NCBI RefSeq assembly: GCF_055900595.2
Contig: NZ_CM148325.1
Length of the DNA: 64,000 nt
Strand: one strand, 5' to 3'
Below the pieces are notes generated by a model. It saw only the letters and a list, made by a program, of their open reading frames with translations, had not been told where the DNA came from and made no database searches. The position numbers were made by a program, and so were the translations under genes. This document shows positions 7,904 through 22,719 of the stretch, one piece after another (the first letter of the stretch is position 1; every line of letters starts with the position of its first letter).

Positions 7904-7921
7904 ATTTTATAACCCATATAC

Positions 7922-7946
7922 GGGCGCCAGAAATGGCGCCTTTTTT
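7922..7946 (+). terminator. rho-independent terminator after J
   Basis: GGCGCC-agaaat-GGCGCC stem followed by TTTTTT. Confidence 0.7.
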
Positions 7947-7970
7947 ATTGCAGAAAAGCGAGAGGTAATT

Positions 7971-8570
7971 ATGCGTAAAGTTTGTGCAGCCATTTTGTCC
8001 GCAGCCATCTGTCTGTCCGTATCCGGTGCGCCTGCATGGGCATCTGAACATCAGTCCACGCTGAGCGCGGGGTATCTTCATGCCTCGACGAACGTTCCCG
8101 GCAGCGATGATCTTAACGGGATTAACATGAAATACCGTTATGAGTTTACGGACACACTGGGGCTGGTGACGTCATTCAGCTATGCAGGAGACAAGAATCG
8201 CCAGCTTACCCGTTACAGCAATACCCGCTGGCATGAAGATTCCGTGCGTAACCGCTGGTTCAGCGTGATGGTGGGGCCGTCTGTGCGCGTGAATGAATGG
8301 TTCAGCGCGTATGCGATGGCGGGTATGGCTTACAGCCGTGTGTCGACTTTTTCCGGGGATTATCTCCGCGTAACTGACAATAAGGGGAAAACGCACGATG
8401 TGCTGACCGGAAGTGATGACGGTCGCCACAGCAACACGTCTCTGGCGTGGGGAGCTGGCGTGCAGTTTAACCCGACCGAATCCGTGGCCATTGATATTGC
8501 TTATGAAGGCTCCGGCAGTGGTGACTGGCGCACTGACGGTTTCATCGTGGGTGTCGGTTATAAATTCTGA
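7971..8570 (+). CDS. lom: outer membrane protein Lom (Ail/Lom family, prophage-encoded)
   Basis: 199 aa with signal peptide [24 protein letters not shown] and beta-barrel pattern ending ...GVGYKF, as in lambda Lom. Confidence 0.9.
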
Positions 8571-8597
8571 TTAGCCAGGTAACACAGTGTTATGACA

Positions 8598-8622
8598 GCC
8601 CGCCGGTTCAGGCGGGCTTTTT
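8598..8622 (+). terminator. rho-independent terminator after lom
   Basis: GCCCGCC-ggttca-GGCGGGC stem followed by TTTTT. Confidence 0.75.
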
Positions 8623-9330
8623 GTGCACAGAAAACCCCCAGCTAGGCTGGGGGTTCCGGAAAGCTTTCAGCTTTGAGCCAGTTATTAAAACCCCTTTTGA
8701 TTTGTTAAAACACCTTGCGGTCTGGCAACTGCAAGTGTCAAACAAGAAATCAAAAGGGGGTCCCAATGGGGGACGAAAAGAGCTTAGCGCACACCCGCTG
8801 GAACTGTAAATATCACATAGTTTTTGCGCCGAAATACCGAAGACTGGCGTTTTACGGAGAGAAGCGTAGGGCGATAGGCAGTATTTTGAGAAAGCTGTGT
8901 GAGTGGAAAAGCGTACGGATTCTGGAAGCAGAGTGCTGCGCAGATCATATCCATATGCTTGTGGAAATCCCACCCAAAATGAGCGTATCCGGCTTTATGG
9001 GATATCTGAAAGGGAAAAGCAGTCTGATGCTTTACGAGCAGTTTGGGGATTTGAAATTCAAATACAGAAACAGGGAGTTCTGGTGCCGAGGGTACTATGT
9101 CGATACGGTGGGTAAGAACACGGCGAAGATACAGGACTACATAAAGCACCAGCTTGAAGAGGATAAAATGGGGGAGCAGTTATCGATTCCATATCCGGGC
9201 AGCCCGTTTACGGGCCGTAAGTAACGAAGTTGAATGCAAATGTCAGATCGTATGCGCCTGTTAGGGCGCGGCTGGTAACAGAGCCTTACAGGCGCATTTG
9301 AAAAACCTCCGGCTATGCCGGAGGATATTT
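8623..9330 (+). mobile_element. IS200 insertion sequence (IS200/IS605 family); ends approximate
   Basis: Contains a tnpA matching IS200 Y1 transposase; left-end hairpin CCCCCAGC-tagg-CTGGGGG upstream of tnpA; ~0.7 kb, the expected IS200 size. Confidence 0.8.
8766..9224 (+). CDS. tnpA: IS200 transposase TnpA (HUH/Y1)
   Basis: 152 aa MGDEKSLAHTRWNCKYHIVFAPKYRR...HIHMLVEIPPK, the HUH motif and IS200 TnpA signature. Confidence 0.95.
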   Translation: MGDEKSLAHTRWNCKYHIVFAPKYRRLAFYGEKRRAIGSILRKLCEWKSVRILEAECCADHIHMLVEIPPKMSVSGFMGYLKGKSSLMLYEQFGDLKFKYRNREFWCRGYYVDTVGKNTAKIQDYIKHQLEEDKMGEQLSIPYPGSPFTGRK

Positions 9331-9345
9331 ATTTGTGGAGTGGAT

Positions 9346-11751
9346 ATGGCAGCAGTAAAAATCTCAGGTGTGCTGAAAGATGGTGCGGGAAAACCAATAC
9401 AGAACTGCACTATTCAACTGAAGGCAAAGCGTAACAGCACCACGGTACTGGTGAACACGGTGGCTTCTGAAAATCCGGATGAAGCCGGACGTTACAGCAT
9501 GGATGTTGAGTATGGCCAGTACAGCGTCACCCTGCTGGTTGAAGGTTTTCCGCCTTCACATGCCGGGACCATTACCGTCTATGAAGGCTCCAGACCAGGT
9601 ACGCTGAATGATTTTCTCGGTGCCATGACGGAAGATGATGTCATGCCGGAGGCATTGCGTCGTTTTGAGGCAATGGTGGAAGAAGTGGCACGCAACGCCG
9701 AAGCCGCCTCTCAGAGCGCAGCGGCGGCAAAGAAATCCGAAACTGCAGCGGCATCATCAAAGAACGCGGCGAAAACCTCAGAAACGAATGCAGCTAATAG
9801 TGCACAGGCGGCAGCGACCTCAAAGACTGCATCGGCAAACTCCGCGACAGCAGCCAAAAAATCAGAAACCAACGCGAAAAATAGCGAGACAGCCGCAAAG
9901 ACGAGCGAAACCAACGCAAAGTCCAGCCAGACGGCAGCGAAAACCAGCGAAACGAATGCCAAAGCCAGTGAAACTGCGGCAAAAAACAGCCAGGTTGCAG
10001 CAGCCCAAAGCGAGAGCGCGGCAGCCGGTTCTGCGACTTCAGCAGCTGGATCAGCAACTGCTGCGGCTAACAGCCAGAAAGCTGCGAAGACGAGTGAAAC
10101 TAACGCAAAGTCCAGCCAGACGGCAGCGAAGACCAGCGAAACGAATGCCAAAACCAGCGAAACTGCGGCGAAAAACAGTCAGGATGCAGCAGCCCAAAGC
10201 GAGAGTGCTGCAGCTGGTTCTGCAAGCGCGGCGGCTGCTTCTGCCACTGCATCAGCTAACAGTCAAAAAGCAGCAAAAACCAGTGAAACCAACGCAAAGG
10301 CGAGCGAGACTGCGGCGGCGAACTCGGCGCAAGCATCGGCAGCAAGCCAGACAGCAGCTAAAGCAAGTGAAGACGCAGCCAGAGAGTATGCAAGCCAGGC
10401 AGCGGAGCCGTATAAACAAGTTTTGCAGCCGTTGCCCGATGTGTGGATACCGTTTAATGATTCACTGGATATGATTACGGGCTTTTCGCCATCATATAAA
10501 AAAATTGTTATTGGCGACGATGAAATAACAATGCCTGGCGACAAGATTGTAAAGTTTAAACGCGCATCGAAAGCAACTTACATTAATAAATCTGGTGTGC
10601 TGACAGAGGCTGCCATTGACGAGCCACGATTTGAACGTGATGGCCTGCTTATTGAGGGGCAAAGAACTAACCTGCTAATCAATTCAACAAATCCGACTAA
10701 ATGGAACAAGTCGTCAAATATGATCTTAAGTGCATCAGGTGTAGATGATTTCGGATTCCAGTACGCAAAATTTACATTAAAACCAGAAATGGTAGGGCAA
10801 ATTTCAGCGATTAACATAGTAACCGTTTCCGGCAGTAAAGGTTTTGATGTAACAGGCGGAGAAAAGTATGTAACCATATCATGCAGGGTGCAAAGTGGCA
10901 CTCCAAATTTAAGATGCCGATTACGATTTGAAAACTATGATGGTTCTACCTACACATTCTTAGGTGACGCTTACTTAAATACGACAGATTTATCTATTGA
11001 TAAGACGGGTGGTGCCGCTAATCGCATTACTGCAAGGGCTGTTAAAGATGAAGCAAGCAAATGGATCTTTTTTGAGGCGACAATTAAGGCACTTGATACA
11101 GAAAATATGATAGGTGGAATGGTTCAGTATGCCCCGGCAAAAGGAGTGGGCACTGGCGCGGATGATTATATTTATATTGCGACCCCTCAAGTTGAAGGTG
11201 GGGCGTGCGCTTCATCGTTTATTATAACAGGCGCATCCCCTGTAACACGCGCCAGCGATATTGTGACGGTCCCCATTTCTCTAAATTGGTGCAATCCCGC
11301 TATTAGTTCATTAGCAGAAGTTAATACCAATTGGGATGAATCGCCAAACAAAGAAGGTAGCGCACGTATTCTTAATATTTCCACTACGGGAGATACAACT
11401 GAAATTGCAGATGAAAGTTATATGTATTTGGGGTATACATCTTTGGGAGCACGCGCAATCATTACAAATGGTAAAGGCACTAAAATAGAATATAAAAGCG
11501 TTATAGAACGACCAGAGAGAAAAAGCATTATCGGCTTTAGATTCACAGAAAGTCGAGAATTGTGTGTTGTGGTTAACGGTAATATTGGTGCTAAGGTAGT
11601 TTCTCCTTATAAAAAACACAAATATACAGGAGGCTTCATTAATATTGGTGGTCAATCATCATCCGGCAACCGTCACCTATTTGGACACGTTCGAAATCTG
11701 CGTATTTGGCACAAGGCATTGACTGATGCTCAGATGGGGGAGTCAATCTAA
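9346..11751 (+). CDS. stf: side tail fiber protein (lambda Stf-like N-terminus, Ala/Ser/Thr-rich repeat shaft, divergent AT-rich C-terminal domain)
   Basis: N-terminus MAAVKISGVLKDGAGKPIQNCTIQLKA... matches lambda Stf; shaft has repeated KTSETNAK units; C-terminus ends GHVRNLRIWHKALTDAQM, resembling a LamG/concanavalin-like fold. Confidence 0.85.
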   Translation: MAAVKISGVLKDGAGKPIQNCTIQLKAKRNSTTVLVNTVASENPDEAGRYSMDVEYGQYSVTLLVEGFPPSHAGTITVYEGSRPGTLNDFLGAMTEDDVMPEALRRFEAMVEEVARNAEAASQSAAAAKKSETAAASSKNAAKTSETNAANSAQAAATSKTASANSATAAKKSETNAKNSETAAKTSETNAKSSQTAAKTSETNAKASETAAKNSQVAAAQSESAAAGSATSAAGSATAAANSQKAAKTSETNAKSSQTAAKTSETNAKTSETAAKNSQDAAAQSESAAAGSASAAAASATASANSQKAAKTSETNAKASETAAANSAQASAASQTAAKASEDAAREYASQAAEPYKQVLQPLPDVWIPFNDSLDMITGFSPSYKKIVIGDDEITMPGDKIVKFKRASKATYINKSGVLTEAAIDEPRFERDGLLIEGQRTNLLINSTNPTKWNKSSNMILSASGVDDFGFQYAKFTLKPEMVGQISAINIVTVSGSKGFDVTGGEKYVTISCRVQSGTPNLRCRLRFENYDGSTYTFLGDAYLNTTDLSIDKTGGAANRITARAVKDEASKWIFFEATIKALDTENMIGGMVQYAPAKGVGTGADDYIYIATPQVEGGACASSFIITGASPVTRASDIVTVPISLNWCNPAISSLAEVNTNWDESPNKEGSARILNISTTGDTTEIADESYMYLGYTSLGARAIITNGKGTKIEYKSVIERPERKSIIGFRFTESRELCVVVNGNIGAKVVSPYKKHKYTGGFINIGGQSSSGNRHLFGHVRNLRIWHKALTDAQMGESI
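9860..10330 (+). repeat. tandem imperfect coding repeats (~186-bp units) in the tail fiber shaft
   Basis: Protein repeats SQKAAKTSETNAKSSQTAAKTSETNAK(A/T)SETAAKNSQ...AAAQSESAAAGSA occur at least twice, nearly identical. Confidence 0.7.
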
Positions 11752-12032
11752 TGAAAGATTTAACACTCAAATTTGCCGACAGGGCCGACTTTTCGGCTTT
11801 TATGGGAAGTATTGGCTATTATAATGACGAGTCGATGCAGGATGATATTCTGATTGATGTGATAGGTAACGTGTACAAAGAAACCGGAGAGCTGACTGAA
11901 GATGGCGAACCGGTATGTGTTAAGGAAGATGGATATTTTGTAAACGTGCGCATCATTAAGGATACGCAAATATCGTCATTATTCGATGAATACGCGGTTG
12001 CTGTTGAGCATCAACTTCGTGGCTGGATGTGA
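11751..12032 (+). CDS. hypothetical protein (93 aa) immediately downstream of tail fiber; possible fiber assembly/accessory protein
   Basis: ATG overlaps the stf stop (TAATG); acidic 93-aa product; same low-GC block as the fiber C-terminus. Confidence 0.5.
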   Translation: MKDLTLKFADRADFSAFMGSIGYYNDESMQDDILIDVIGNVYKETGELTEDGEPVCVKEDGYFVNVRIIKDTQISSLFDEYAVAVEHQLRGWM

Positions 12033-12041
12033 GGTAGAGAA

Positions 12042-12746
12042 ATGGCTACATCAACAGTAATTCCGGGAGACATCACCACGCTGAAGGGAGATGTTAGTAA
12101 AGCAAAGGAAGATATTTCCTCTATTAACGGAAAAGTATCAACGCTTCAGACTGATATGGCCAGTGCAAAGCAGGATATCAGCACCAGATACACAAAAACT
12201 GAAGTTGATAATAAGCTGAAAAACAAAGTGGAAGTGAACGATCTGGAAAGTGGTCGTTATGGCGGAGATTTTTACCCGCTGACTGGCCGTGAAGCGTTTT
12301 ATTTATGGGGATTGGGCACAACTACAGCGGCGGCAAATCTTTATCTTAATCCTGACCCTGCAATTTCGTCTGTGCTGCGGTCAACATCGTCTATCCGCTA
12401 TAAACATTCAGTAGAGACGATAGATTCAGAGCACGCCGATCTCATTTTCAGGATGCGCCCTGTGTGGTACAGGTCGCAATGCGAAAATGACAGGCGTGAC
12501 TGGGGATTCTATGGATTGATTGCCGAGGAAGTTGGAGAAATTGCCCCTCAGTTTGTTCACTGGCGACCAGCCAACGAAGATGATGCACCGGAAACCATTT
12601 CCAGCAATGGCCTTGTTGCCGAAGGTGTAATGTACGAACGTCTGGTTGTTCCACTGATTCACCATATCCAGAAGCTGACTGAAAGAGTTGATGAACTTGA
12701 GTCAGAATTAAAGTTGTTATCCGTTTCCCGAAGCGATATCGGATAA
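12042..12746 (+). CDS. coiled-coil protein with C-terminal intramolecular-chaperone (peptidase S74-like) domain; tail-fiber-related
   Basis: N-terminal heptad-like coiled coil; C-terminal SSIRYKHSVETID...LIFRMRPVWYR...GFYGLIAEEV resembles the self-cleaving chaperone domain of endosialidase-type fibers. Confidence 0.6.
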   Translation: MATSTVIPGDITTLKGDVSKAKEDISSINGKVSTLQTDMASAKQDISTRYTKTEVDNKLKNKVEVNDLESGRYGGDFYPLTGREAFYLWGLGTTTAAANLYLNPDPAISSVLRSTSSIRYKHSVETIDSEHADLIFRMRPVWYRSQCENDRRDWGFYGLIAEEVGEIAPQFVHWRPANEDDAPETISSNGLVAEGVMYERLVVPLIHHIQKLTERVDELESELKLLSVSRSDIG

Positions 12747-12756
12747 AGGAGGCGTA

Positions 12757-13050
12757 ATGGATATAACACCTTTCCTTCATGCACTTTGTGCTGTGGCTGC
12801 GCAGGTACTGGTTGGTCTTTTTACCGGAAACTGGGCTTACGGGGCGATAGCTGGTTGTACGTTCTTCATTGCGCGTGAACATACCCAGGCAGAATATCGC
12901 TGGATTGAAATGTTCGGGCATGGCAAGCGTATGAATATGCCGTGGTGGGGCGGTTTTGATCCGCGTGCGTGGGATGTGGCAAGCCTGATGGATTTTGCTG
13001 TGCCGGTGGTGGCGTGTCTGCTGGTCTGGCTGTTGGTTAATCGTGGGTGA
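12757..13050 (+). CDS. small membrane protein (97 aa, two predicted TM segments), function unknown
   Basis: Hydrophobic N- and C-terminal segments; RBS AAGGAGG upstream; tightly packed after the preceding ORF. Confidence 0.5.
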   Translation: MDITPFLHALCAVAAQVLVGLFTGNWAYGAIAGCTFFIAREHTQAEYRWIEMFGHGKRMNMPWWGGFDPRAWDVASLMDFAVPVVACLLVWLLVNRG

Positions 13051-13060
13051 AAAAAGGTGA

Positions 13061-13180
13061 GCTGTATATGCAACGGAGGAAGAAACCTCGTTGCGGGAAG
13101 CCTTGAAGAAGTATCGGGTGTTGCTGAACCGTGTTGATACGTCAACTGCACAGGATATTGAATGGCCAGCACTGCCGTAG
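13061..13180 (+). pseudogene. tfa: tail fiber assembly protein (Tfa) 3' remnant
   Basis: Translates to [36 protein letters not shown], the conserved Tfa C-terminus (as in K-12 TfaQ/TfaR), with no upstream coding part. Confidence 0.75.
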
Positions 13181-13277
13181 GGTAAAACATATAAATTCTA
13201 TAATTAGATGTATCTTTCCATTTACGGCAAGGAAGGGGGCTTGGAAGACGTAAGGCATCTCACACCGAGATTATTTT

Positions 13278-13868
13278 TTATATGTCAGGTGTCTGAAGTT
13301 TTGCTTTGGCTCTTAAAATGGTTTGCCGCGAGGTTTTGAATTCCCGGGCAATGGCACTTATACTTACACCTGACTTAATCCGTTCGAATACCACCTGTTT
13401 CTGTTCTTCATTTAACACAGGTGGTCGACCAAAACGTTTCCCTGCGCCCCGGGCTCTTACTATCCCGGAATGAGTGCGTTCAAGTAAAAGGTCTCGTTCA
13501 AATTCAGCGACTGCTGAAATTACTTGCATCATCATTTTTCCTGTTGGACTGGTCAGGTCAATGCCCCCCAATGCTAAGCAATGCACTCTGATACCTGTTT
13601 CGGTCAGTTGTTCCACTGTTTTCCTGATATCCATTGCATTACAACCAAGGCGATCCAGTTTTGTCACAATCAATTGATCACCACATTTCAGGCGAGCAAG
13701 CAACCGGTTAAAACCAGGACGCTCACTGGTTGCTGCTGAGCCGCTAATGTGTTCTTCGATTATTTGCTGAGGTTTGATTTTAAAACCTGCACTTTCGATT
13801 TCCCGGCGTTGATTTTCGGTGGTCTGATCCAGCGTTGATATCCGACAGTAAGCAAAAATTCGAGACAT
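13278..13868 (-). CDS. pin: serine recombinase / DNA invertase (PinQ/PinR-like)
   Basis: 196 aa [29 protein letters not shown]... resolvase/invertase fold with catalytic Ser and C-terminal HTH; position next to tfa and ydfK matches K-12 pinQ. Confidence 0.9.
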
Positions 13869-14184
13869 AGTGAGACTCTATACGAAATTGGTGTTCATAT
13901 CATAATGCATCTCAGAAAATAATTTTGATTATTTTTGTGCATGTTTGTATGTACACGTTCGAAAATAAACGAATGCGTATGCAACCCCGTAATTTTGGTG
14001 AGACCCAAAATCGATTTTGTGAAAAATGGCTTTAACTCGGTTTGTTTTTCGAGTTCCGGGCGGACTCAAGGAAGAAGAATAGTGTTGCGTGTTATTTTAA
14101 CCAGATTTCAAGTTGTTTGGTCGTGGAAAAGTGGAGCAAAATGTTGTTAAAGTGGAAAAATGATAAAAAAGTAAGTTTATTATA

Positions 14185-14418
14185 TTACATTTTACCATTT
14201 AAATTTTGGTTGTCTTTAAGAACTGATATCGCTGTTTGTAATAATTCTTTGTTATCCAGCCATGATTTTTTCTTTATGTTTCCTTCAATGTAATCAAGCA
14301 ATGTTCTGGTATTGATAGGTCTTCCCTGTTTTGCTACTTCCACTACAGCATCCCCTAGGATAATTCTGACTTCAGGAAGCTGCGCAGGGAACCACTTTAG
14401 GGTGTCTTTTGATTTCAT
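14185..14418 (-). CDS. ydfK: YdfK/YnaE family prophage protein (cold-shock-induced, DUF1737-like)
   Basis: MKSKDTLKWFPAQLPEVRIILGDAVVEVAKQGRPINTRTLLDYIEGNIKKKSWLDNKELL... matches K-12 YdfK; RBS AAGGA upstream of this start, so the longer ORF-track start at 14451 is rejected. Confidence 0.8.
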   Translation of the reverse strand: MKSKDTLKWFPAQLPEVRIILGDAVVEVAKQGRPINTRTLLDYIEGNIKKKSWLDNKELLQTAISVLKDNQNLNGKM

Positions 14419-15203
14419 GAATATATTCCTTAAAATATTATTGATTTTCATTGCGATATTGTATGTCTGATTCAGGATATGTTGACTTATACATCGGTTT
14501 TGTCTGGGTTATTGGATATGCCAATCCCTAATTTTATTAGAGCATGACTAAAAATGCTGAATATGATAAGGAGCGAAGTGATTATCAGTATGCTGTTCAT
14601 ATAGCCTCGAATTATTAATGTGTTATATATGATATAGTTGACAATTTTTATCCTGGGTGTTCTTAAAGTTCGTAGATAAACATTGTCGTTTCAGGTATAC
14701 AGGAATGCTAACAGATGGCGGCAAAAATCAGGCGGTTTATGGCGCAAGCTGAAGTGGCAACTGCAAACTATCTTATGCAGAGACTCTACACGGATTGGGT
14801 TTAAAAGTATACATAGATAACAGTTTTTATCTGAAGAAGAAAAATATCAAGGTGATATAGCCTATATGCCTTTGATGCGGAGGAATGAATGTGATGGGAG
14901 TGATGTATCTGAATAGTTGAAAAACCGCAGACACGCCTTATGCAAGAACGTGCTGCGGTTGGCTGGTAAATTTTTCGATAGTGCGAGTATTGAATGATTT
15001 CCAGCCGTTATTGATTTTACGCGTAACTCCATGAAAAAACTACTTATCTGTTGAGGAGTTTTTTTGGGGCATATATGGGACAGAAATAGGCCCCAGATAG
15101 ACACTGAGATCGAACTTAGGATGCTTTTTAAAAAATGCAACTATCTGAAAAAACCTAGAAAACGCCAAGGAAACCACAGGATGGGAAAAAACACCTGTGA
15201 ATC

Positions 15204-22200: not shown

Positions 22201-22719
22201 TTATAGCAGTAATTGCAGCAGCTGGGCGAGGGCAAACCTCACCGCTAAAGCTAATACCGTTTCGCAGTCGCCAGCAAAATGCATAACCGCAGTGTAGTTC
22301 TGGCCTTTAATATGCCACGCGAACCAGACGGTACCCGCTGGCGTACCATCTTCACCGCCCTCCGGTCCGCCGTAGCCGGTAATGGCAATACTGACATCAG
22401 CATCCGCACGCTCTATGGCACCGGTTGCCATTTCTGCTGCCACTTTCTCACTCACCGCAGAATATCGTTCAAGAGATTGCTGGCTTACGCTGAGGATTTT
22501 CATCTTTGCCTGATCGGTGAAAGTAACAAAGCCTGCACCGTAAAATTTGGGTGTATCTTCAGCTGCACACAGGGCGCTAGCCAACTTACCGCCGGTGCAT
22601 GATTCGGCGGTAGTTAAGCGTAATTGATCCGCGATAAGTCTTTGACTCAACGCGGATGTCAGGTTTTCAATAGTGTCGGTATCTGCGAGTTGTACAATTT
22701 TATCTTTATTAATGTTCAC
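22201..22719 (-). CDS. ydeJ: CinA C-terminal domain family protein YdeJ
   Basis: 172 aa; matches K-12 YdeJ; synteny. Confidence 0.85.
   Translation of the reverse strand: MNINKDKIVQLADTDTIENLTSALSQRLIADQLRLTTAESCTGGKLASALCAAEDTPKFYGAGFVTFTDQAKMKILSVSQQSLERYSAVSEKVAAEMATGAIERADADVSIAITGYGGPEGGEDGTPAGTVWFAWHIKGQNYTAVMHFAGDCETVLALAVRFALAQLLQLLL

Follow-up and report, generated by a model that had tools for sequence, protein, structure and literature searches.

Tip exchange in a lambda-type prophage side tail fibre: a sugar-binding-type two-domain head common to many Escherichia coli phages

The side tail fibre (Stf) of phage lambda (Ur-lambda) is encoded at the same place as the gene described here, after J and lom, and has the same collar domain and the same kind of Ala/Ser/Thr repeat shaft; its C-terminal half (orf-314) is T4 gp37-like, binds OmpC and needs Tfa. 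Engineered lambda Stf chimeras are already in development for DNA payload delivery to chosen E. coli strains. The lateral fibres of T5-like and T1-like phages recognise O-antigen as a facultative first receptor (PMC8594841). In T5-like DT57C, a two-gene locus encodes the branched LtfA and LtfB, both thought to recognise O-antigens; the second protein is joined on through the first and has a conserved anchor at its N-terminus. Gp22 (bas32_0022) of the Tequintavirus IrisVonRoten was described in 2025 as a proximal lateral tail fibre to which the distal fibre Gp24 attaches, with a C-terminal galectin-like domain as a possible additional RBD (PMC11990801). JakobBernoulli and RuthEpting are related phages that get through the O16 O-antigen layer; their published receptor-binding tip belongs to an IMC-bearing coiled-coil fibre rather than to a lectin-like head. 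Outside tail fibres, the RcGTA head spike fibre Rcc01080 (GhsB), a single chain whose N-terminal Leu-Gly repeat anchors it to capsid pentons, binds capsular polysaccharide in tagged-protein assays (PMC10218006; PMC7296036).

The gene studied here codes for a side tail fibre. It belongs to a lambdoid E. coli prophage inserted at the Qin (ydfJ) site and lies on the + strand of the window, the 64-kb stretch of DNA that was analysed. Its ORF is intact and stops at 11751. The program-made frame opens at TTG 9298 (817 aa); the true start is the ATG at 9346, which is preceded by GGAG and matches the start of the RefSeq allelic fibre gene in a near-identical J-lom-IS200 backbone, giving a CDS of 801 aa plus stop (9346..11751) that matches phrog_1419 ('tail protein', E 0) over its full length. 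The N-terminus is the lambda-type collar/attachment domain (9352..9741), which matches the ~130-aa prophage tail fibre N-terminal domain PF08400 (Pfam phage_tail_N; E 5.5e-67, model positions 2–131 of 134); residues 3–95 correspond to the collar domain solved for Ur-lambda Stf (9E7M/9MGH, E 1.5e-49), and the DNA is 82% identical to lambda at 9329–9698. At the protein level, identity to lambda orf-401 is 61% across the N-terminal 285 aa and rises to ~85% for the first 120 aa. The shaft that follows (9700..10383, GC ~0.55) is Ala/Ser/Thr-rich, aligns with the orf-401 repeat region and is built of 21-nt repeat units and a 189-nt duplication (9841–10029/10030–10218). The collar would anchor the fibre to the tail as in Ur-lambda, and the shaft would form a coiled-coil trimer by analogy with Stf and LtfA structures.

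Beyond the shaft, GC falls from 0.546 (9346–10383) to 0.414 (10384–11751) and GC3 from 0.49 to 0.34. The drop of 0.17 between adjacent 600-nt windows at 10,410 is the biggest anywhere in the 64 kb. The lambda Stf-type N-terminus, the repeat shaft and the AT-rich shift near 10430, all proposed in the earlier note, are borne out by these data (0.55 to 0.41 at ~10,400 in the GC plot). The AT-rich module comprises residues 362–801 (440 aa), from PLPDVW (10429) to ...GHVRNLRIWHKALTDAQMGESI (11748), which replaces the range of ~365–817 given before. Neither lambda Stf fragment is similar to it (orf-401; orf-314, by BLASTP), so that the claim of a ~430-aa domain unlike lambda Stf holds for the unlikeness; the single domain resolves into a conserved N-terminal segment and two separate beta-sandwiches, D1 and D2. 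The onset and N-terminal segment (10384..10671, module aa 1–81, PLPDVWIPFNDSL...), delimited by the GC step at 10,410 and by identity to 2G7b and EC195, is the most conserved block of the family; in the hypervariable D1 and D2 cores conservation is 0.12–0.4 per block.

D1 (10540..11283, module aa 38–285) is a beta-sandwich of GTA head-spike-fibre type, predicted by AF2 with pLDDT above 90 (90.6 for the module, 85.6 for D2 alone), and its DNA is shared with EC195. It matches NCBIfam NF048003 (phage head spike fiber domain, GTA_spike_fiber) at 61.2 bits against a cut-off of 36 (E 1.8e-16, profile 1–181 of 182), and the family profile aligns with RcGTA Rcc01080 over ~240 residues (E 4.3e-38) and with Pa193 gp46/E217 gp45 (E 2.4e-14). 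The homology to Rcc01080, a head rather than a tail fibre, covers D1 only. A phmmer search of the module against PDB sequences returned the RcGTA fibre as its sole match; that chain gave no fold information because only residues 2–10 are resolved, the globular part being without experimental structure.

D2 (11275..11748, module aa 283–440) is a LamG/Laminin_G_3-type jelly roll, allele-specific save for its last ~36 codons. Its predicted structure is two-sheeted and superposable on solved LamG, pentraxin or CBM40 domains, and a profile comparison of D2 against the PDB also counts in favour of the lectin-type fold. Sequence identity to LamG, pentraxin, CBM40 and BoNT HCN is just 9–20%, with no conserved Ca2+ or sugar-binding residues found. 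A Pfam scan of the whole fibre reported the N-terminal domain and not LamG; the signal came on scanning the module and its homologues separately, Laminin_G_3 (PF13385) being detected in 15 of 45 homologues at E<=0.001 (best 1.9e-11) and, below threshold, in the fibre itself (E 0.0027, 18.3 bits, model positions 93–149 only). The LamG-like C-terminus suggested earlier is thus upheld for D2, while the preceding ~245 aa form a different domain, of the GTA head-spike-fibre family. No internal duplication linking the two is detectable by sequence, hhalign giving no alignment of D1 with D2, and Pfam scans found no S74 intramolecular-chaperone tip of the T5 pb1/endosialidase type in this fibre.

The architecture is collinear with a large, ordinary Stf/Ltf family, the lectin-headed PHROG 1419, over the full length (1363 bits, residues 3–802 against profile 1–793 of 793). 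The fibre is an ordinary member of a database-known family, mosaic relative to lambda and otherwise not unusual. The module occurs in 216 phage records (sipho- and myoviruses) and 859 E. coli genomes, at the C-terminus in every case, in proteins of 438–1481 aa. Kindred fibres of the family belong to Drexlerviridae, Queuovirinae, Dhillonvirus, Vequintavirinae and lambdoid phages such as 2G7b; those of EC195 and IdasGreatGrand are 70–73% identical over the module. The C-terminus of IrisVonRoten Gp22 is collinear with it, at 50% identity over all 440 aa; the attachment domain is lambda-type (PF08400) here and T5 LtfA-type in the Gp22 family.

Pairwise comparisons delimit the junctions. DNA homology to lambda is limited to 9329–9698 and 13069–13170. 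The lambdoid phage 2G7b is 97.5% identical at 9329–10671, 89% at 11643–12101 and 96% at 12756–13167, with nothing between, and the Drexlerviridae phage EC195 is 87% identical at 10384–11267. A search for donors, which the earlier note had recommended, showed that over its initial 838 nt the AT-rich part is 86–88% identical to genes for lateral or side tail fibres in lytic Drexlerviridae, Queuovirinae and T5-like phages. No donor can be named for the D2 allele, because no sequenced phage exceeds 68% DNA identity to it (best 65–68%, KookSpook and PhiR46_1). On these alignments the mosaic is layered: a lambda-like collar, a repeat shaft, a D1 core common to T1-like and T5-like lytic phages (87% DNA identity) and a D2 allele of its own. 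The patchy identity to lambda, 2G7b and EC195 indicates independent variation at three places, the D1 core, D2 and the distal part of gene 3, on backbones that are near-identical elsewhere, a pattern to be expected of specificity determinants. Of the horizontally swapped receptor-binding module proposed earlier, replacement of the tip is confirmed by these junctions, while the receptor-binding role of the head is one that we infer.

Three conserved ORFs follow on the + strand. Gene 2 (11751..12032, phrog_1361), whose start overlaps the fibre stop (TAATG), encodes a 93-aa candidate adaptor or chaperone, 37–94% identical across EC195, 2G7b and BUCT632; it matched no solved relative and no NCBIfam family. 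Its homologues occur in 179 phage records and lie right after the fibre in all matches listed. Gene 3 (12042..12746) encodes a second, short fibre protein of 234 aa, recognised by Pfam Peptidase_S74 (E 2.2e-5), by the phrog_3299 C-terminus and by alignment with its counterparts of 174, 345 and 579 aa in EC195, 2G7b and BUCT632. It consists of an invariant N-terminal peptide (MxTxTVIPxDIxxLK), a short coiled coil and an S74 intramolecular-chaperone domain (aa 116–172, motif SSIRYK); in the counterparts the N-terminus is invariant and the middle wholly different. A 97-aa hydrophobic ORF (12757..13050, phrog_1443; 96% DNA identity with 2G7b over 12756–13167) ends the cassette. At the right-hand replacement junction lies the 3' remnant of a lambda-type tfa (tail fibre assembly; 13069..13180, 92% identical to the end of lambda orf-194), of which only the last ~100 nt are left and which a 99.7%-identical genome annotates as 'tail fiber assembly protein, missing N-terminus'. 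A lambda Stf/Tfa-type tip, meaning the orf-314 region with an intact tfa, is therefore not present at the locus. Switching of fibre tips by the adjacent pinQ invertase (13278–13868), in the manner of Mu Gin, P1 Cin and e14 Pin, was considered and rejected because no inverted repeats flank the cassette, no AAACCNNGGTTT-type (gix-like) core occurs in the region and tfa is only a stub.

The order fibre/small gene/second fibre is kept in lambdoid, T1-like, T5-like and rV5-like phages, Gp22-type loci sharing both the small gene and the second S74 fibre, and one conserved unit (89% to 2G7b) runs from the D2 C-terminus through gene 2 into the N-terminal part of gene 3. Given the conserved 93-aa gene and the second S74 fibre gene after it, this protein probably forms the proximal arm of a fibre that is two-part or branched, with the second fibre attaching to it. 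DT57C differs in that LtfA ends in an S74 chaperone domain instead of a lectin-type head, and the descriptions of its fibres consulted here do not mention the intervening 93-aa gene; IrisVonRoten carries a T-shaped 574-aa distal protein in place of the 234-aa minimal version found here.

Beyond the gene anatomy, fold, homologies and mosaic junctions established above, we consider it probable that the locus encodes a lambdoid side fibre with a lectin-type two-domain head that binds surface glycans reversibly and travels as a portable cassette. Each chain would end in a globular head of two beta-sandwich domains replacing the lambda T4-gp37-like, Tfa-dependent tip. By analogy with related domains, the head would most likely bind surface polysaccharide (O-antigen or capsule) reversibly, with specificity set by the variable D1 and D2 cores, and would thereby concentrate the virion on the cell before J meets its outer-membrane receptor. 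The cassette (head, 93-aa gene, S74 second fibre and 97-aa gene) would have replaced everything from the lambda-type N-terminus to the end of tfa, and conserved linker segments would let its pieces reassort among coliphages, both temperate and lytic. The O-antigen and capsule types that a phage can pass depend on its side and lateral tail fibres. The locus offers a clean natural recombination map of three variable cassettes (D1 core, D2 and distal fibre) with conserved linkers between, and ties a very common, putative lectin-type head on tail fibres to the GTA head spike, which binds capsule. Its use lies in annotation and in the choice of fusion points rather than in a new biological principle.

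Because the adaptor-like gene and the second fibre gene come next, the head may serve as an accessory binder, as a branch point or as both, and its role could be mainly structural given that the tip of JakobBernoulli and RuthEpting sits on an IMC-bearing coiled-coil fibre like gene 3. On a rival reading, the head would be chiefly a docking hub for the invariant N-terminal peptide of the S74 fibre, perhaps through the 93-aa adaptor, with specificity in the distal fibre and the lectin-type fold a mere scaffold. The conserved gene order, the unit spanning D2 to gene 3, the gene 3 proteins with their invariant N-termini and entirely different middles, the published models attaching the IrisVonRoten distal fibre to Gp22 and the DT57C precedent all point this way. 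However, D1 and D2 cores that are hypervariable between near-identical backbones are unexpected in a pure scaffold for an invariant peptide, the RcGTA D1 homologue binds glycan without any second fibre, and gene 3 is a stub leaving ~115 aa after S74 cleavage, a poor sole receptor binder; we hold this explanation unlikely. Somewhat more plausible, if still doubtful, is a dual-purpose branch node. Its variable D1/D2 faces would bind glycans, and the second, S74-matured fibre would be held by its invariant N-terminal peptide, the contacts coming from the conserved segments at both ends of the head together with the 93-aa protein. Were this true, the side fibre of lambdoid prophages would be branched in T5/DT57C style and have up to three specificity cassettes, each open to exchange independently of the others, and D1 would be an ancient portable module of GTA head spikes, Pbunavirus baseplate wedges and coliphage fibres.

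That the head is instead a polysaccharide-degrading enzyme (a depolymerase or lyase) could be read from the family-invariant charged or polar residues of D1 (R67, E69, E76, N81, Q254 and E256), but these sit in conserved framework blocks at both D1 ends that are common to the GTA fibre. The best structure and sequence matches are non-catalytic (CBM40, BoNT HCN, pentraxin, LamG, AbnA domain 4 and a baseplate wedge domain), and Pfam and NCBIfam gave no glycosidase or lyase family, which makes catalysis very improbable. A separate matter, bearing on expression in this strain and not on protein identity, is whether the gene is a silent relic: with IS200 directly upstream, between lom and the fibre start, in a possibly defective prophage, it may be unexpressed. 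The tfa stub beside an apparently orphan pinQ, and a near-identical genome that annotates the same fibre as a pseudogene, fit such decay. Against it, J, lom and the fibre all have intact frames, as do the three ORFs beyond, the fibre stop overlaps the gene 2 start as in a working operon, and phage isolates such as 2G7b carry the same cassette type; we regard silence as improbable. The lom-IS200-stf junction recurs in 152 genomes and is therefore stably inherited, its closest match, NZ_CM136170.1, which served as a mosaic comparison, having a different integration site and a different distal cassette.

The window opens, in its first 13,200 nt, with the right-hand end of a lambdoid prophage, tail genes included: J (4463/4508-7903) is followed by lom (7971-8570), an IS200 tnpA on the plus strand (8767-9225), the side tail fibre gene, three small genes and a stub of tfa. 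What follows is shown by a genome that shares 99.7% identity with 9329-15000, where ydfK, ynfT and a truncated form of ydfJ come next; the prophage thus sits at the Qin attachment region of E. coli. Beyond it, the window holds ordinary chromosomal genes (dcp, mar, lsr, hipBA). The fibre coding sequence spans 9346-11751 (801 aa), because the ATG at 9346 is preceded by GGAG and the RefSeq annotation of an allelic fibre gene on a near-identical J-lom-IS200 backbone uses the same start; the 817-aa open reading frame of a mechanical ORF list begins at a TTG upstream.

As an earlier note on this DNA had proposed, the fibre keeps a lambda-like Stf N-terminus (PF08400, E 5.5e-67; lambda orf-401, 61% identity over 285 aa; solved Ur-lambda collar domain, E 1.5e-49), which leads into a repeat shaft built of 21-nt units and a 189-nt duplication. 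The C-terminal part is, as likewise claimed, unlike lambda Stf: neither lambda Stf fragment shows similarity to the last 440 aa (10429-11748; the module). The turn to AT-rich DNA, placed by the note at ~10430, was recovered as a fall in GC from 0.546 upstream of 10384 to 0.414 from there to the stop, with GC3 falling from 0.49 to 0.34. Between adjacent 600-nt windows, no other drop in the 64-kb window is as large as this one, whose maximum is at 10,410.

By homology, the module occurs widely: among 1.84 billion representative proteins searched, 2,804 were relatives at E ≤ 0.001; in full-coverage relatives (438-1481 aa) it is always C-terminal, and the terminal motif GHxRNxRIWHxALTDxQ is kept throughout. 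The fibre tail aligns weakly with the last third of Pfam Laminin_G_3 (E 0.0027), a profile matched at E ≤ 0.001 by 15 of 45 homologues (best 1.9e-11). The earlier reading of a LamG-like tip held, except that the module is not a single domain and comprises two beta-sandwich domains, D1 and D2 (together, the head), with no mutual sequence similarity. Against solved structures, the D2 profile matches a LamG-type S-layer domain (5.8e-5) and BoNT/D (3.5e-4), and it also matches pentraxins and CBM40; the terminal motif, which the note had called typical of concanavalin/LamG-like jelly-rolls, sits on the matching C-terminal stretch in both D2-profile alignments listed. D1 (module residues ~38-285; 10540-11283) belongs to NCBIfam NF048003, named 'phage head spike fiber domain' (61.2 bits, cut-off 36). 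Two solved chains are matched by the family profile: Rcc01080, the head spike fibre of the Rhodobacter capsulatus GTA (E 4.3e-38), and residues ~197-394 of the baseplate wedge protein Pa193 gp46 / E217 gp45 (E 2.4e-14).

A 93-aa gene (11751-12032), whose start codon overlaps the stop of the fibre (TAATG), lies directly 3' of the fibre gene in all matches listed; its homologues occur in 179 phage records and the module in 216, with equal host and taxon spread. Next comes a 234-aa second fibre (12042-12746), comprising an N-terminal peptide invariant among counterparts (MxTxTVIPxDIxxLK), a short coiled coil and a Peptidase_S74 intramolecular-chaperone (IMC) domain (aa 116-172, E 2.2e-5). Counterparts have 174 aa in the Drexlerviridae phage EC195, 345 aa in the lambdoid phage 2G7b, 579 aa in T5-like BUCT632 and 574 aa in the Tequintavirus IrisVonRoten; a 196-aa 'tail fiber protein' of rV5-like CarlMeissner is likened to them by position and annotation only. 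Judged from such comparisons, head, small gene and second fibre form a portable three-part cassette of siphoviruses and myoviruses.

The second fibre is encoded here by an unusually short gene, and predicted S74 self-cleavage (SSIRYK, ~aa 116-121) would leave only ~115 aa. All 234 aa match the C-terminal 238 of the 1,385 positions of fibre profile phrog_3299, which suggests interconversion between the two-gene layout and one long fibre. A strongly hydrophobic 97-aa ORF (12757-13050; phrog_1443) ends the cassette; with GC of 0.53, above its neighbours, and 96% DNA identity in 2G7b, it looks like a small membrane protein travelling with the fibre genes. The 3' stub of a lambda-type tfa (13069-13180) adjoins an intact serine invertase gene, pinQ (13278-13868, minus strand). 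Neither flanking inverted repeats nor crossover cores of the gix type were found there, and the invertase appears to have been orphaned by cassette replacement.

Relative to lambda, which matches the fibre start (9329-9698, 82% DNA identity) and the tfa 3' end (13069-13170, 92%), the interval ~9700-13069 is entirely replaced. 2G7b matches 9329-10671 (97.5%), 11643-12101 (89%) and 12756-13167 (96%), with no detectable similarity to the window between these segments, and a prophage sharing the J-lom-IS200 backbone (~92% overall identity) repeats the pattern. Conserved intervals are module codons 1-81, a junction block (the last ~36 D2 codons, the 93-aa gene and the first ~20 codons of the second fibre) and the 97-aa gene; the D1 core and most of D2 are variable, as is the second fibre in its distal part. 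EC195 matches 10384-11267 (87%), ending at the D1/D2 boundary, and at the protein level is ~93% identical in D1 and ~35% in D2. The donor search that the note had suggested returned lytic-phage fibre genes: over its first 838 nt, the AT-rich region matches those of 22 Drexlerviridae, Queuovirinae and T5-like Markadamsvirinae at 78-88% identity (best 86-88%). No phage relative of the D2 allele was found above 68% DNA identity; of the 59 complete E. coli genomes that cover at least 80% of the query, however, 25 or more carry the allele at ≥99.8% identity, and part of the module is matched in 859 of 5,426 genomes. The low GC fits a module circulating among AT-richer lytic phages, and the GC step is the shaft/module boundary, not the latest crossover. 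The fibre is mosaic relative to lambda, and the proposal of a horizontally swapped module is supported in refined form, with receptor binding as its probable role.

In the 2025 BASEL paper (PMC11990801), IrisVonRoten Gp22 is modelled as a proximal fibre to which a distal T-shaped receptor-binding protein, Gp24, attaches. The Gp22 C-terminus is 50% identical to the module across all 440 residues, so such a structure has already been described, as a prediction. We consider an assembly of collar anchor, shaft, glycan-binding accessory head and S74 second arm the probable reading. The collar domain would fix the fibre to the tail in Ur-lambda style, the repeat shaft would lengthen it, and the lectin-type head would act as an accessory receptor-binding domain with reversible binding to O-antigen or capsule; a second arm, distal or branching, would be formed by the S74 fibre encoded downstream. 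The proposed glycan binding has three supports: the fold class; the homology between D1 and the GTA head spike fibre, a protein shown by tagged-protein assays to bind capsular polysaccharide (PMC10218006); and the fact that the D1 and D2 cores are hypervariable among phages that otherwise hardly differ.

The conserved gene order and junction block would also suit a head that is mostly a docking hub, with specificity residing in the second fibre, and in published models it is coiled-coil fibres with an IMC that bear the receptor-binding tip. This main rival is rather doubtful, however, since the head itself is variable and the second fibre is here merely a stub. An enzymatic role of the head seems very improbable beside the accessory glycan-binding one.

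By full-length match to phrog_1419, the fibre belongs, as an ordinary member, to a large family already annotated in databases; the allele is new and uncharacterised, its kind is known, and the lectin-like tip of the family is already in print. Automated annotation of the family is inconsistent: among near-identical genomes, the same fibre is annotated as a pseudogene without its C-terminus in NZ_AP022536.1 (locus 7917-9920), and in NZ_CP054353.1, where an IS1 splits it, the two parts are labelled 'phage tail protein' and 'phage head spike fiber domain-containing protein'.

The IS200 element (8623-9328) fills the exact gap between lom and the fibre start, 8622 being joined to 9329 in IS200-free genomes, and a GC-rich hairpin with a T-run (9309-9340) lies at its downstream end, just ahead of the fibre ATG, where it might stop late-operon read-through into the fibre genes. 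With the IS200 immediately upstream, the fibre operon may be silent in this strain. The lom-IS200-stf junction occurs in 152 complete E. coli genomes, in some of which a prophage at another chromosomal site carries it with a different fibre cassette. Two further sharp GC drops, nearly as large as that in the fibre (0.16-0.17, adjacent 600-nt windows), lie at ~22,430-22,620 and 49,360. Collinearity with THO-008 places them close to the interval dcp/ydeI and close to where a large autotransporter gene of the ECSE_1600 family starts; this autotransporter gene is frameshifted in THO-008.
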